Positions 1 to 6,430 of a stretch of DNA of 64,000 nucleotides are shown piece after piece. The stretch is taken from contig NW_026250411.1 in assembly GCF_024521635.1 (NCBI RefSeq), forward strand, positions 620,001 through 684,000. The letters run 5' to 3'. The first letter of the stretch is position 1. Each line of letters begins with the position of its first letter. The translations under genes and the position numbers were made by a program. Below the pieces are notes generated by a model. That model did no database searches and was not told where the DNA came from. It was given only the letters and a program-made list of their open reading frames with translations. Source of the DNA: Tricharina praecox. Taxonomy: Eukaryota.

Positions 1-1383
1 AAAGAGAACGCCAGTGGAATCTGGAGCGGTCCATACCCTTACGTAGATCAGCATTCGATAACCAAATCGATTGGGAACGGGATTGCATACCAGCTTCTTC
101 TTGAGATCACCTCTCTGTATAACACCATTTTTGGCATTCTTGAGTTCCGCGATGATAGCTCTGATCAAACTCTCCAGGTGAATGGTTTCGCCAGTCCATC
201 GCTCGCTGCTCTTGCTGGATGCAGGTTTGCCCTTTAACCCACTGTCATCTTTGTGATCTTGTGCTAGTTTCCTGTCACGTAGATAGGCAAATTTCGTGAG
301 CGTGAGCTTGCTCGTGTTCATGCTTTTGGCCAGAACAGCGACCTTCTCAATATAGCCCATTTCCTTGAGCAAGGTCGTCCGGCCAGCGATGGACTTCTTA
401 TCTTGACCGGTGATCTTGGTAAGGTCCGGCTGGATCAATCCCTGTTCACGGTGCTTCCCAATCACCTCGAGACACTTGAAAACGGCGTTTGGCACCTGGT
501 GGGAGATCAGCATACGATCACAACGAGTGATAAGGGAACAAAAGCTTACCCTCTTCGGATCCGGGCCATGGCCTGTAAGTGTCCGCCACCGACGATCCTC
601 GCTCGCATACACTCGGAGATTGGCGTCGTCCTTATTCTCCCTCCATTTGTCGACTATTTCTCCCAGTGACATACCCCGGGATTCGTTTTTTGGGCCGACA
701 TTGAAGTCCTTCTGCTGTCTCAAAAGACCCCAGACATACTCCTGGAATTCTTCCTTGACGTTTGGAGTCCCCCAACACTCAGCAGCGATGCGGTCTCTCT
801 CAGCAGCAGCTTCATCGCCGTCGCCAGCCATGTCCTCATCTCCGTCTTCTTTTCGACCCTCCAATTGATCGGCCCAGAGAAGTTCACCAACATAATGTCG
901 CTCCTGACGGCTTTTGACATAGAAGTCATTGACGTACTTGAATAGCTCCTCGACGTCAGTGCCTAATAGTCGCAAAATTCATATCAGCACTAACTCGGTC
1001 GGATCGCACGAAACTAGACAGTGATAAATATCCCAAATCGGTGCCGCTTTCAAGTCTCGAACCTATCACATTCCCAAGGGAAAAGTGACAAAGCGAGCAT
1101 TCAAGCAGCCACGTCCCAACAGGGTAATGTGTTTGGGTTCACACTAGAACCCAGTAGCGTCAAACTGTAACCAGAATGTGAAATTTTGCGACGGGAGATC
1201 GCGATGTTGATGATGGCATTGGTGAGCAGGCATGCCCCACCACTGCATCTCGATTCCTTTTTTTATTTTTCGCCACAGAAAAGCGACTGCAACGAGAGAG
1301 AACATGAAAAAATATAACATACCTTCAGCACCATCAATGGCGACCTCTTCGAGGACGTAGTTCAATAGAGCTTTCACACTCAT
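1..1383 (-). CDS. TFC3: TFIIIC B-block binding subunit (Tfc3/Sfc3), 5' part; gene runs off the left edge
   Basis: Exon 1 1383-1323 (MSVKALLNYVLEEVAIDGAEG), intron 1322-963 (GTATGT...TAG). Downstream spliced reading gives LRVYASEDRRWRTLTGHGPDPKR and VPNAVFKCLEVIGKHREQGLIQPDLTKITGQDKKSIAGRTTLLKEMGYIEK, matching the B-block_TFIIIC winged-helix pattern. Confidence 0.9.
1053..1063 (-). promoter_or_regulatory. Second, weaker B-box-like element (GGTTCGAGACT) inside TFC3 intron 1
   Basis: Matches the GTTCRANNC core and has the same orientation as the upstream B-box. Confidence 0.35.
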
Positions 1384-1489
1384 CGCGGAGCTTTGAGCAT
1401 GGGGAGATTGAGTCGAGAAGTTGTAGGGATGGTGTAGAAATCGAGATGTGTGTAGGAGGGTGAAGAGTTAAAAGTAAAAAGGATGGTGG

Positions 1490-1500
1490 GGAATCGAACC
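1490..1500 (-). promoter_or_regulatory. Consensus Pol III B-box (GGTTCGATTCC) without a tRNA; candidate extra-TFIIIC (ETC/COC) site
   Basis: The + strand ggaatcgaacc at 1490-1500 is GGTTCGATTCC on the - strand, about 107 nt upstream of the TFC3 ATG. I found no A-box or cloverleaf around it. Confidence 0.7.
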
Positions 1501-1660
1501 ACCACTTCCATGTCACATGCTTGTGCTAAGTAAGCGACAATTTGTGTTACCCGGTGAAAGGTGGTTTAGCTAGTGCAAGAAACGAGGCTAGAGCTTTCTA
1601 TGATATCAGAACCCCACCAGCCAGTCCCCACTCTCTCCATTCACGCGAAACAAAACAGCA

Positions 1661-2269
1661 ATGGAATCTACTATCGTATACCCCCGAGTGACAATCCAGT
1701 ACTGTACTCAATGCAAATGGCTTCTCCGTATTTATTTCCTGTGATCTCAAGCTTTCGATCGGACAATTCTGATGGCTTCGTACAGGCGCCGCATATGTAA
1801 GATCCGGACGAGCTGCTTGTTAAAAGCTCATGCACTGATTGTAGAAGTTTGCACAAGAGCTACTCTCCACATTCTCGACTTCGCTAGGTGAAGTCTCGCT
1901 CCAACCCTCGACCGGAGGAACCTTCGTGGTGAACATCTACCACAAAGAAGACACTTCCTCGAGCGAGGTGACGACTACGAATTTGTGGGATCGTAAGACA
2001 GAGGGTGGCTTTCCGGAGACGAAGGTAGAGTTGTTCTGGAAATTAGAAAACAGCCGTTGACATTTTTATAGCTGCTAAAGCAACGGGTCAGGAATGTGAT
2101 CGACCCGGGACGAGACCTGGGGCATGTAGACGGGAGGAAGGCCATCAAGGAGGGCACTACTGCTTCGGCTTCAGCTCCGGCACAAGAGGGACACCAGGCC
2201 GAGAAATCCGGTGCTACGGCGTGCGTTCCGAAAGACGGTGCAAAGGAGGTTTGCGAAGACTGTCAATGA
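1661..2269 (+). CDS. Rdx family (SelT/SelW/SelH-like) thioredoxin-fold protein, Cys form; 3 introns
   Basis: Spliced product MESTIVYPRVTIQYCTQCKWLLRAAY-FAQELLSTFSTSLGEVSLQPSTGGTF...LWDRKTEGGFPETK-LLKQRVRNVIDPGRDLGHVD...CEDCQ*. CxxC, WDRK and GGFP are Rdx hallmarks. Confidence 0.9.
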
Positions 2270-2618
2270 GATTGGCTGTGAGTGTCGTTGTGTACGTCAA
2301 GTCTGTAGAATATCAATCCTTCAAACGAGTTCGTGATCCAGACCTCCCTCGGAGTTTGTTCCCAGTGATGCTCTTCCCGCTTAACAAGCCGCGATCATAG
2401 AGGTACAGACTGCTCACCTAGATCGCAGTCGTCATCATATTCCCCCCATACATCACCTCCAGGCCAAATGACGTATTCTCTAGTACGTCACAGCACCGTA
2501 TAGGCCGTGGGATGCTCTGTGCCGTGGGTACATATTCGCCTCCTCGCGCATATGCAGATCCTTTCTTCCAGCATTTATTCCACTCCATCCGCACACTCAC
2601 AACTTTCGATTCTACACA

Positions 2619-3061
2619 ATGCAAACAATCGCACGCTCCCGCATCTCGAATCTGATCTCTTCACGCTGCTTCTCCACTACACGAATCGTCATGACTTCAC
2701 CGCCGTCTCAAGTTAAGGCCCATTTGCAGTGGGTTAAGGGTGCCGGAACTGTTCGTATAATCACTTCTACCTCTTCGTTTCATCCAGTTCTGACAGTCCA
2801 CAGGAGATGCTCGGCTCGATGCTTTCCACACCCCTCAAAGAGTCCGGTGCGGCTACAAAGGAGGCCGCAGTGAACGAGATGAGAGCCGCAAAGGAAATCG
2901 GGGATCGGAAGGTCGAGCGTAACATCGCTGAAGAGGGCCCGATGAGATTGAGTGCTGAGGGGAAATCAGAAGGGTTGTTTGGTAAGGTGGTTGGCTGCGA
3001 GGGCATGAAGGAGCGTGGAGATGCAAAGATCAAGGCGGCGGAGACGAAGTCGGTGAATTGA
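2619..3061 (+). CDS. Small hydrophilic fungal protein (CsbD/LEA-like, GCEGM motif); 1 intron; possible mitochondrial presequence
   Basis: Intron 2751-2803 (GTTCGT...CTGAC...CAG) joins ORFs 2619 and 2807 in frame: ...AHLQWVKGAGT-EMLGSML...KVVGCEGMKERG. Confidence 0.7.
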
Positions 3062-3771
3062 GGGCTCTGGGCTATAAGGGAAATGTACGATATGAAATTA
3101 CAATAATGTTGAGATCGAGAAATCGCGTTAGCGGTGCGAGTTCGAAGTAGGATTCGTCACTACGCACTGGTGCTTTGATTCTCATCACGACACTAGACTA
3201 TTGACCAAAATTACGAATTAACAACTATACATGCTGGCTTCACCTAGATATTGTAGCCTAACATCATCAAGAAAAGAACCTATTGATGAGTGTAGTCACA
3301 GGGTCATCACTCGGATCCCCTGTCATCGGCTGCTTCGCCCAAGGGAGCTTTTGGGGGGTTTAATCATCATGACATTTCACCTAGTAGGCCATAGCATTCC
3401 ACCTTAGTAGATCATAAATCGGCTTCCCCCTCGCTGTCCGACCCCGCAGAGCAAGGGGCCCGATGCGAGATCACTTTTTGCCTCCGTCTGGTCTGTCCAG
3501 TATTTCAGAGCTCCCTTAGGGAAGTACTCACATGATGGAGGAAACGAAAGCAAGCACCGCGAAGCCTCACAACCGAACTAATATCCCTCACTCTCACATA
3601 TCTCCCAGCCATCACGTCCGCATAAGGGAGCACACAAAATACGATCGCCAGTATTGAACAAGGTGTGAGTAGGCTTAGAACCTGGATTAAAGGGAGCAGG
3701 ATCCCTTCCCCTTCCTGCTATCTTTCTCATCGACCCTATCTACCACCACAATCCTCTCAAACACCATCCAC

Positions 3772-4338
3772 ATGCACTTCCAACTCAGCATCCTCGCAAT
3801 CCTCTCGATCGTCGCTGTCTCCACCCTGGTGGCAGCTTCCGAACCCCCTTCCGTCAAGATTTTCGAGCTCCCCAACTTCTCCACCCCCGGCACCGACTCC
3901 CCGCAGACGTCCGCCGACCAAGAGAACGCCCATTCTCCCTCGCCAATTGTTCGTCTCTCCTCGACCTCCAACGATACCTACATCTACAAGTTGCCGACCT
4001 CCTCGGAAGCATGGGCCATGCTCACCTGCGAGACGTCCTGGGCCTCTCCAACGTTCTCGGAGATCGACGAGCTCATCAAGCGCGCAGGGATACCGCACAA
4101 GGGCTTGATCAAGTGTCGTTACTTCCAGGACAACGGTGTTGGCTCCTACTGCAAAAAGGTGGTGCACTACAAGGGCGGCGAGATCAGCTTGTGTGGGAAG
4201 TATCAGTACGGTCTTACTTGTGAGAGTGTTTTGTATGCTGCAATGCAGGTGAGGGATAGGTGTGGACATCAGGAAAAGAGTAGGGCTGGTGGTTACTATC
4301 GCTTCAACAAGGTGAAGCTGAGGGTCATGGTTCATTAG
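3772..4338 (+). CDS. Small secreted cysteine-rich protein, copy 1 (effector/killer-toxin-like)
   Basis: 188 aa, intronless. Hydrophobic signal peptide, S/P-rich linker, and a ~105 aa C-terminal domain with 6 Cys starting CETSWASP. Confidence 0.85.
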   Translation: MHFQLSILAILSIVAVSTLVAASEPPSVKIFELPNFSTPGTDSPQTSADQENAHSPSPIVRLSSTSNDTYIYKLPTSSEAWAMLTCETSWASPTFSEIDELIKRAGIPHKGLIKCRYFQDNGVGSYCKKVVHYKGGEISLCGKYQYGLTCESVLYAAMQVRDRCGHQEKSRAGGYYRFNKVKLRVMVH

Positions 4339-4815
4339 ATCTACTTAGCTTGGTCTACGAAGGAGATATGCAATCTTTAGGTGGATAAATCACTTTTGTC
4401 TCTGCTGGCCTACCACATGGCGGATTTCCAACAGGCTTCCGATGCTCCTTGTGAGTGACTTTGCTGTCAGCCCATGCCTTGGCTTTCTTCCACTTAGCTT
4501 CCGAAATCCCGCGCTTCAGATAGGCAAGCGATGGGGGTGACAGAGGTCTGGTGCCATACTGGTGCAGGCAATGAGTCCCCTCCACTCCGCGAGCGGTAGG
4601 GTTGTCGACTTAAGGGAGCTCAGCGTACGATCGCCAGTGTTGGATGAGGTGCGAGTGATAACACCTGAAGGGCTTGGGAACCCGGATTGAAGGAAGCATG
4701 ATCTCTTCTCCTTCCTGCCTTCTTTCTCATCATCCCTATCTACCACCCTTCTCCTTCCGGCTTTCTTTCTCCTCAAACCACATCTACCACCACCATCTTC
4801 TCGAACACCATCAAC

Positions 4816-5376
4816 ATGCGCTTCCGCCTCAGCATCCTCGCAGTCCTCTCGACCGTCGCTGTCTCCACCCTGGTGGCAGCGTCCGGCTCCGGCAGCTTCA
4901 CCAAGGGGGCTTCCGAACACTCCTCCGTCAAGATCTTCGAGCTCCCCAACTTCTCGGCCCCGGGCAGCGACTCTCCCGCGCCGGTTGTTCGTCTCTCCCC
5001 CGGCTCCAACGCCACCTACATCTACACGTTGCCGACCTCCTCGGAAGCATGGGCCATGCTCACCTGCGAGACGTCCTGGGCCTCTCCAACGTTCTCGGAG
5101 ATCGACGAGCTCATCAAGCGCGCAGGGATACCGCACAAGGGCTTGATCAAGTGTCGTTACTTCCAGGACAACGGTGTTGGCTCCTACTGCAAAAAGGTGG
5201 TGCACTACAAGGGCGGCGAGATCAGCATGTGTGGGAAGTTTCTGCAAGGTCTTACTTGTGAGAGTGTTGTGTATGCTGCTATGCAGGTGAGGGATAGGTG
5301 TGGACATCAGGAAAAGAGTAGGGCTGGTGGTTACTATCGCTTCAACAAGGTGAAGCTGAGGGTCGTGGTTCATTAG
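4816..5376 (+). CDS. Small secreted cysteine-rich protein, copy 2 (chimeric paralog)
   Basis: 186 aa. N-terminus and upstream DNA resemble copy 3; the Cys domain is nearly identical to copy 1. Confidence 0.85.
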   Translation: MRFRLSILAVLSTVAVSTLVAASGSGSFTKGASEHSSVKIFELPNFSAPGSDSPAPVVRLSPGSNATYIYTLPTSSEAWAMLTCETSWASPTFSEIDELIKRAGIPHKGLIKCRYFQDNGVGSYCKKVVHYKGGEISMCGKFLQGLTCESVVYAAMQVRDRCGHQEKSRAGGYYRFNKVKLRVVVH

Positions 5377-5854
5377 TTTTACGACTGCTTGGTCTACGAA
5401 GGAGATATGCAATCTTTAGGTGGATAAATCACTTTTGTCTCTGCTGGCCTACCGCGTTGCGGATTTCCAACAGGCTTCTAATACTTCGTGTGAGTGACTT
5501 TGCTGTCAACCCATGCCTTAGCTTCCTTCCACTTAGCTTCCGAAATCCCGCGCTTCAGATAGGCAAGCGATGGGGGTGACAGAGGTCTGGTGCCATACTG
5601 GTGCAGGCAACGAGTCCCCTCCACTCCGCGAGCGGTAGGGTTGTCGACTTAAGGGAGCTCAGCGTACGATCGCCAGTGTTGGATGAGGTGCGAGTGATAA
5701 CACCTGAAGGGCTTGGGAACCCGGATTGAAGGAAGCATGATCTCTTCTCCTTCCTGCCTTCTTTCTCATCATCCCTATCTACCACCCTTCTCCTTCCGGC
5801 TTTCTTTCTCCTCAAACCACATCTACCACCACCATCTTCTCGAACACCATCAAC

Positions 5855-6430
5855 ATGCGCTTCCGCCTCAGCATCCTCGCAGTCCTCTCGATCGTCGCTG
5901 TCTCCACCCTGGTTGCAGCGTCCGGCTCCGGCGGCTTCACCAAGGAGGCTTCCGAACCATCCTCTGTCAAGATCTTCGAGTTGCCCGACTTCTCCACCCC
6001 GGGCACCGACAAGAACGAAGCTCACTCTCCCACGCCGACTGTTCGTCTCTCCCCCGGCTCTAACGCTACCTACATCTACACGTTGCCGACCTCCTCGGAA
6101 GCATGGGCCACGCTCCGCTGCGAGACGGCGTGGGCCTCCCCAACGTTCTCGGAGATCGACGAGCTGCTCAAGCTCGCCGCGATACCGGCCAAGGGCTGGA
6201 CCAAGTGCCGGCACTTCCAGGACAATGGTGTTGGCTCCTACTGCAAAAAGGTGGCGCACTACAAGGGCGACCAGATCAGCTTGTGTGGCGAGTTCCAGCA
6301 CGGTCTCGCTTGCGAAGGCGTGGTCTATGCTGCTAAGCAGGTGAGGGATAAGTGTGGACAGCAGGAAAAGAGTCGCGCTGGTGGTTACTTTCGCTCCAAC
6401 AAGGCGAAGCTGAGGGTCGCGGTTCATTAG
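5855..6430 (+). CDS. Small secreted cysteine-rich protein, copy 3
   Basis: 191 aa. Same 6-Cys spacing, more diverged mature domain (CETAWASP, KGWTKCRH). Confidence 0.85.
   Translation: MRFRLSILAVLSIVAVSTLVAASGSGGFTKEASEPSSVKIFELPDFSTPGTDKNEAHSPTPTVRLSPGSNATYIYTLPTSSEAWATLRCETAWASPTFSEIDELLKLAAIPAKGWTKCRHFQDNGVGSYCKKVAHYKGDQISLCGEFQHGLACEGVVYAAKQVRDKCGQQEKSRAGGYFRSNKAKLRVAVH

Follow-up and report, generated by a model that had tools for sequence, protein, structure and literature searches.

The window, by which we mean the whole 64-kb stretch analysed, opens inside a minus-strand gene for TFC3 (tau138), TFIIIC's B-block-binding subunit (Table 1). The gene was identified by a B-block_TFIIIC domain (PF04182, E 5e-19) and extends approximately 4.7 kb past the left end of the window. 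In a quick tree this TFC3 groups with those of Geopyxis and Ascodesmis, Pezizomycetes. An Rdx-family gene is encoded divergently, and 277 nt separate the two genes (ATGs at 1383 and 1661), close to the shared promoter of about 280 bp described in the initial annotation. Both RNA contigs over the Rdx gene have 10 letters between their joined sides, pointing to a micro-exon of about 11 nt at 1786-1796 (plus strand). Elsewhere in the window, at 3748-6430 (plus strand) and probably beyond, a repeat unit of about 1,040 nt carries nearly identical genes in tandem, at least three in number; their small protein products contain cysteines and begin with signal-peptide-like sequences.

Table 1. Positions of the features around the TFC3 start and the evidence for each.
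Feature	Position	Strand	Evidence
TFC3 exons 2-4, B-block_TFIIIC domain	1..962	-	Domain search and RNA contigs
TFC3 intron 1, 360 nt, productive splice	963..1322	-	RNA contig X2 skips 1322-963
Segment retained when proximal acceptor 1243 is used	963..1242	-	RNA contig X1
Intronic B-box with ETC-type extra bases, core 1063-1053	1043..1065	-	Compared with Table 1 of PMC3395662
First coding exon of TFC3 (tau138), 61 nt	1323..1383	-	Geopyxis protein N-terminus match and RNA contig
Six-codon out-of-frame upstream ORF, stop overlapping the TFC3 start codon	1380..1400	-	Sequence; covered by RNA contig X2
Predicted short hairpin around promoter box, then T5 (1480-1476)	1476..1505	-	RNA fold z -1.4 to -2.1
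Promoter-proximal B-box, perfect 11-nt consensus	1500-1490	-	Motif match and orthologous position kept
Divergent Rdx-family gene	1661..2269	+	PF10262 and RNA contigs

B-boxes and splice forms at the TFC3 start

The promoter-proximal box, GGTTCGATTCC, lies 107 nt from the TFC3 ATG, where a perfect B-box had been claimed, and is the sole match to GGTTCGANNCC in the window. The motif alone is ordinary: 0.65 matches are expected per 64 kb, and at least one was present in 52 of 100 shuffles. The 38.36-Mb genome contains 254 matches to GGTTCGANNCC, tRNA genes included (about 1.8e-3 per 277 nt), and 108 to the reversed-pattern control (about 0.8e-3 per 277 nt). These rates lie on either side of the rough figure of 1e-3 given earlier for a chance match in a given 300 bp. 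The rare feature is the placement of the box, not the motif itself.

The promoter site has the B-box core of extra-TFIIIC (ETC/COC) sites, GTTCRANNC, in agreement with the consensus GGTTCGANTCC (PMC3395662; here and below, papers are cited for the portions available). As in the ETC6 type, it lies in the promoter of a gene for a TFIIIC subunit. Absent from it is the 3' extension present in all eight budding-yeast ETC sites (G19, G22, C23; Table 1 of PMC3395662), which is read by tau91 (PMC11724288). The box is within a predicted hairpin of 6-7 bp followed by T5, which has the look of a tRNA tail, a feature missing from the initial annotation. A DNA search of the genome with the promoter stretch returned only the site itself, and it appears to be single copy; by the tool's own caveat, absence of a match is no proof of rarity. 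A 20-nt pattern allowing 3 mismatches had three unrelated genome matches, compared with 1 in the control.

Intron 1, confirmed by an RNA contig, contains a second site in the same orientation, GGTTCGAGACT at 1063-1053, as the initial annotation had proposed. This site does have the 3' extension, with G at 19 and GC at 22-23 as in the eight budding-yeast ETC sites. Genome-wide, the extended pattern occurs 244 times versus 202 for its reversed control, and is thus weakly informative alone. A predicted RNA hairpin at 1110-1030 (minus strand) buries the intronic box (z -3.49 in a chosen window; -2.86 in the best sliding window). This precise arrangement of two sites is described here for this genome, the orthologs including no other Pezizomycete. 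A family of extended ETC sites in this genome was considered and rejected, as 7 of 13 pattern matches are copies of one dispersed repeat. This non-tRNA repeat (around position 1500 of each of L103, L104, L107, L108, L109, L111, L112; contigs C12, C13, C17, C20, C42, C50) carries a B-box and is unlike the TFC3 sites; it is possibly a SINE or other element.

Two of the four RNA runs placed on positions 1-3000 yielded spliced TFC3 contigs (X1 and X2), and runs X3 and X4 gave coverage only of a gene at 2590-3000. The contigs report presence rather than amount and cannot show starts or absence; X1 and X2 leave 1447-1629, where the promoter box lies, uncovered, and permit no inference on its transcription. 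Contig X2, which extends to 1446, has 1322-963 removed with the frame kept. At 360 nt, intron 1 is longer than introns 2 (54 nt) and 3 (53 nt). In contig X1, 1323 is joined to 1242 through removal of an 80-nt GT..AG intron, with 22 letters on the short side of the join. The X1 form retains 1242-963, including the intronic box, and has the next two introns spliced. It is unproductive (stop at 1162, 47-residue product) and was found in one RNA assembly only. Its proximal acceptor at 1243 is without a canonical branch point. An alternative acceptor, defined as a branch point plus YAG within intron 1, was identified in 2 of 38 ortholog clusters (best 80 of 138 loci) and is absent in this genome. 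In one ortholog group, both introns 1 and 2 are out in contig L095, intron 2 is out and intron 1 retained in L096, and neither is removed in L062 and L064. Since this lineage is without an intronic box, none is required for intron 1 to be spliced slowly.

Conservation among TFC3 orthologs

Metagenome relatives were found with a 32-row protein alignment, and the best 80 of 138 stretches were retained. Selection was by protein only and was independent of any DNA motif. Exon 1 was identified in 77 of these 80 loci (not L046, L067 or L074), and exon 1 together with a phase-1 intron position is kept in the same number, one of which (L095) is spliced. Dropping L095 as spliced left 76 loci, which form 38 clusters at 85% identity. 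The ends of intron 1 in the orthologs were predicted by profile, weakly for L052 and the L071 group, and give a median length of 157 nt (range 65-494; 38 clusters, best 80 of 138 loci). From quick-tree placement, we take the clusters to be 9 Sordariomycete-like, 7 Eurotiomycete, 15 Dothideomycete, 5 near the Lecanoromycete Wetmoreana, and 2 unplaced. The quick tree places no Pezizomycetes among the 38 clusters (best 80 of 138 loci). The clusters are related rather than independent trials, so binomial P values overstate the case. The viral collection yielded no relative.

All box counts in this and the next paragraph refer to the best 80 of 138 loci. Of the 35 clusters (85% identity) with sufficient upstream sequence, 30 carry GTTCRANNC on either strand at -150..-1 relative to the TFC3 ATG, where dinucleotide shuffles predict 1.66, the reversed pattern gives 1, and other upstream 150-nt windows give 0-2 of 27-33. 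The result is similar at other clusterings (39/44 at 95% and 23/27 at 75%). Absence from orthologous promoters had been set as the outcome that would count against the site, and the opposite was found. Intron 1 contains the core in 11 of 38 clusters (shuffles, 1.98 expected; reversed pattern, 3; equal-length window past the acceptor, 1/38). A box is thus present upstream or in intron 1 in 36 of 38 clusters, versus 3.6 expected. The two exceptions carry ATTCGAA cores, the A-variant seen in yeast ETC1/2/4/8; with the pattern relaxed after the fact, the count is 38/38 versus 8.0 expected. An unbiased word count returned GTTCGA as the top enriched 6-mer (26/35 versus 18/245). Two positions outside the search pattern are also enriched over background, T8 (32/48 sites versus 15/62) and C10 (25/48 versus 14/62). 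The first G of the tRNA consensus is present at 11 of 50 sites; conservation is limited to the 9-10 nt core, and the flanks show none among orthologs. In a rough control set of 22 long-ORF starts picked by rule, 2 have a B-box.

The upstream boxes are located at a median of -89 (range -134 to -35). Sense sites number 42 and antisense sites 6, and the orientation is inverted between related Dothideomycete loci (L026 group versus L051 group). Palindromic cores, in which the B-box can be read on both strands, occur in intron 1 of L033 (+91) and at L050 (-134). Several lineages have boxes only in the intron (L022, L029, L077). Compensation between promoter and intron sites gave 3/5 versus 6/30 (P 0.09) with the strict pattern, and 4/4 versus 8/31 (P 0.009) with the pattern relaxed afterwards. 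The ETC 3' extension was found at 2 of 50 sites, the intronic site of this genome and one ortholog site, with 1/62 in background. Conservation of the motif in evolution, as expected of ETC/COC sites, was observed in this sample, which contains no Pezizomycete. Use confined to this lineage, as first suggested, is not what we find: the box occurs across Sordario-, Eurotio-, Dothideo- and Lecanoromycete-like lineages. Its changes of position, strand and compartment across several classes suggest selection with turnover.

Upstream neighbours were surveyed by submitting 56 of 95 listed ORFs (32 clusters), and families were named for 10 clusters and none for 22 of 32; small unrecognised genes in between are possible. 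The named neighbours are in tandem with TFC3 in 9 of 10 clusters (MFAP1 in five, then KRE1, CAND1/TIP120, GDPD and a weak SIS match) and on the opposite strand in one (UreD). None is Rdx. Given this prevalence of tandem neighbours (9 of 10 named), the box follows TFC3 and not the divergent layout.

Three further TFIIIC subunit genes of this genome, Tau95, TFIIIC_delta and TFIIIC_sub6, have no GTTCRANNC on either strand of their loci (3.1-3.7 kb). The box at TFC3 is real, conserved, and gene-specific among the subunits checked. The BRF1 locus has no box in the 150 nt upstream of the start. A perfect GTTCGAATCC is present there 28 nt past the start, in coding exon 1, which encodes a zinc ribbon (L115:1991-1982, minus strand; G000:C83); it may be a chance match.

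A second feature of the TFC3 start is conserved. Out-of-frame AUGs occur within -40..-1 in 31 of 38 clusters (best 80 of 138) and in this genome, where the AUG is at 1400. Shuffles gave a mean of 15.7 and a maximum of 24 in 1000, other 40-nt windows gave 3-16 of 33-38, and the rough control starts gave 8/22 (P 6e-4). The distance of the AUG varies, both frames are used, and 26 of 31 have a purine at -3. Among the seven clusters without such an AUG, six have an ORF of 2-7 codons within 72 nt of the start. By the rules of scanning, an out-of-frame upstream AUG lowers translation from the main start. The AUG may thus be a second conserved brake on TFC3, possibly tied to the box. Upstream of the promoter box there is another AUG, whose 43-codon frame (1511-1380, minus strand) ends at the stop that also closes the six-codon ORF and overlaps the TFC3 start; this AUG would count only in transcripts that begin upstream of the box.

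Possible roles of the box

By analogy with yeast, the box is probably an ETC6-like negative feedback site through which TFIIIC damps its own subunit gene, TFC3. The lone putative TFIIIC site would sense the TFIIIC level and damp Pol II expression of the gene for the B-box reader. The winged-helix domains of tau138 read the B-box, and the B-box governs TFIIIC residence (PMC11724288). Because an A-box is required to bring TFIIIB and Pol III (PMC11724288), a lone B-box should hold TFIIIC without making RNA. Free TFIIIC beyond the capacity of the tRNA genes would presumably occupy the A-box-less site, and bound TFIIIC would hinder Pol II pre-initiation or early elongation, with a drop in TFC3 mRNA. 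In budding yeast, a B-box at -150..-90 of TFC6 represses approximately twofold via lower TBP occupancy (PMC3334521), and the sign of the effect proposed for TFC3 is taken from this one gene. Intronic copies could act only on elongation, splicing or chromatin. The conserved out-of-frame AUG may keep Tfc3 output low, such that Tfc3 could be the limiting subunit. The flips in orientation between related loci are compatible with a site that functions as DNA.

A more elaborate version of negative feedback is possible, though doubtful: a three-layer homeostat, in which DNA-bound TFIIIC would set both Pol II starts at TFC3 and which message is made, with the box moving between promoter and intron in evolution. 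A start-proximal box would shift initiation relative to the strong out-of-frame AUG, and an intronic box would stall Pol II after the weak proximal acceptor and before the true distal one; high TFIIIC would then lead to retained or mis-spliced, stop-bearing RNA. If true, a Pol III factor would control splicing and leader choice by forming a roadblock on its own gene.

Readings other than negative feedback have to be weighed. TFIIIC might bind and act positively, or set the start site, by opening the promoter, positioning the Pol II start, or choosing the 5' leader relative to the upstream AUG. The narrow position of the box, the conserved out-of-frame AUG, and the 5'-extended, poorly translated mRNAs that follow loss of a TFIIIC site in yeast (PMC4228148) are consistent with this. 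We nonetheless regard it as unlikely, as the precedent at TFC6 is a negative one, a positive loop on a subunit that is essential and limiting would be expected to be unstable, and the intron-only sites (L022, L029, L077) would hardly be able to set a start. Rather less likely is a boundary or anchoring site (an ETC/COC insulator) that shields TFC3 from its neighbour with no feedback. In its favour, divergent genes flank 6 of 8 yeast ETC sites and the majority of COC sites (PMC3395662), this locus is divergent with 277 nt between the genes, and read-through from a tandem neighbour could still need blocking. The insulator between divergent genes offered as an option in the initial annotation does not fit the orthologs: the named neighbours, tandem in 9 of 10 cases, come from five gene families plus one weak match, and the box is intronic in 11 of 38 clusters (best 80 of 138). 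Nor does a boundary offer a reason for retention at the B-box reader's own gene. Feedback fits better, because the neighbour is tandem in 9 of 10 named cases and never Rdx, and the box is also found in intron 1.

The hairpin and T5 at the promoter site raise the question of a very short Pol III unit, or of a tRNA or SINE relic. T4 is found downstream of 18 of 32 upstream boxes and upstream of 7 of 32; this excess and the 42/6 strand bias would also fit a short transcribed unit. T-runs are, however, common across the whole upstream window (25/35 clusters), the flanks vary and the orientation flips. ARAGORN at default score, with and without introns, predicted no tRNA at either box, and Rfam gave no credible match over either (best E 6). 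No tRNA was found near the ortholog TFC3 starts (best 80 of 138 loci), and a strict A-box 15-100 nt upstream of the box occurs at 2 of 32 sites versus 1.08 expected, with 4 of 4 tRNA controls positive. The motif itself dictates one stem pair, and T-stems with at least 4 of 5 pairs were counted at 9 of 32 upstream sites against a rough expectation of about 6. The box thus lies outside any tRNA or other known Pol III gene detected here, is without an A-box, cloverleaf or conserved T-stem, and, at the promoter, belongs to no set of related copies. The lack of A-box and cloverleaf noted at the outset holds, and the ARAGORN search at default score gave no sign of a relic. We consider a Pol III unit or relic improbable. 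Two Rfam matches at E up to 10 were rejected as chance, as was a tRNA-Thr with a 536-nt intron called here by ARAGORN at relaxed score, since 42 such calls in the window amount to noise. ARAGORN without intron search also missed, or mislabelled as tRNA-Gly, the intron-bearing tRNA-Arg(CCT) genes L001-L003.

Slightly less probable again is a GTTCGA-like word that is read by another Pol II factor and merely resembles a B-box. Conservation limited to the 9-10 nt core, with the first G at 11 of 50 sites, is what it would predict, but the first consensus position varies among yeast ETC sites too (PMC3395662). Furthermore, the G-or-A choice at position 5 and two positions outside the search, T8 and C10, agree with the B-box, and the host gene encodes the B-box reader. 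Coincidence is very improbable as the source of the match in this genome: 64 kb is expected to hold one match, but the ortholog counts (30/35, 36/38, and 26/35 for GTTCGA; best 80 of 138) refute chance for the gene family.

Comparison with known TFIIIC sites and feedback systems

TFIIIC feedback is documented for one gene in one yeast, and a commentary asks about autoregulation of other subunits (PMC3334521). A 2025 review, in the portion available, describes the role of ETC sites as still to be determined and leaves autoregulation unmentioned (PMC12409998). Like ETC6 at S. cerevisiae TFC6 (PMC3334521), the TFC3 site is a lone B-box approximately 100 nt upstream of a Pol II-transcribed tauB subunit gene, lies in a divergent spacer in this genome, and is proposed to mediate negative feedback. 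Unlike at ETC6, the target is TFC3 (tau138) rather than TFC6 (tau91) and the promoter site is without the 3' ETC extension. Also unlike ETC6 are the recurrent second or sole copy in intron 1, the presence in several fungal classes, and the overlapping upstream ORF. The TFC3 box would work like ETC6 yet fails the extended-ETC test at the promoter, and is a candidate ETC site.

Similarities extend to ETC1-8 of S. cerevisiae and COC sites of S. pombe (PMC3395662), where a B-box also occurs without a tRNA gene or A-box, the first consensus base is free, and G or A comes next. The TFC3 sites differ in that G19/G22/C23 are found only in the intronic site of this genome and one ortholog site, and in that they are usually not between divergent genes. 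The tRNA relics ZOD1 and ETC9/iYGR033C (PMC4228148) likewise place a Pol III promoter element beside a Pol II gene, where it can affect the 5' end. At TFC3, unlike in these relics, no A-box or tRNA remnant is detectable and placement is tied to one gene across lineages.

We found no earlier description of a B-box, whether at TFC3/sfc3 or in filamentous fungi generally, in the literature searched, which included few subscription papers and excluded supplements, where ChIP peak tables could list the sfc3 or TFC3 promoter. The available portions of PMC3395662, PMC4228148, PMC4370569, PMC6182151, PMC4063703, PMC12409998 and PMC3945056, and of bioRxiv 10.64898/2026.04.27.721182 and 10.1101/2025.01.30.635671, make no mention of a B-box at TFC3/sfc3. 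With a box kept at the TFC3 start across classes, feedback begins to look like a general design rule implemented via different subunits, and lone B-boxes would gain a concrete, deeply conserved job. The fission-yeast literature may mention a COC site near sfc3. If such a site has already been described, the principle at this gene is anticipated, and the novelty lies in how widely the box occurs, in its relocation to the intron and in the upstream AUG. With the intronic copies and the upstream ORF that overlaps the start, it becomes possible to ask if a Pol III factor steers Pol II splicing or leader choice. A related arrangement exists in plants, where TFIIIA is controlled by feedback through the P5SM poison exon, with an RNA mimic of 5S rRNA as the signal. 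As in P5SM, a Pol III factor gene has an unproductive splice form that could close a loop; unlike in P5SM, the candidate signal is a site in DNA, and only one assembly shows use of the alternative acceptor.
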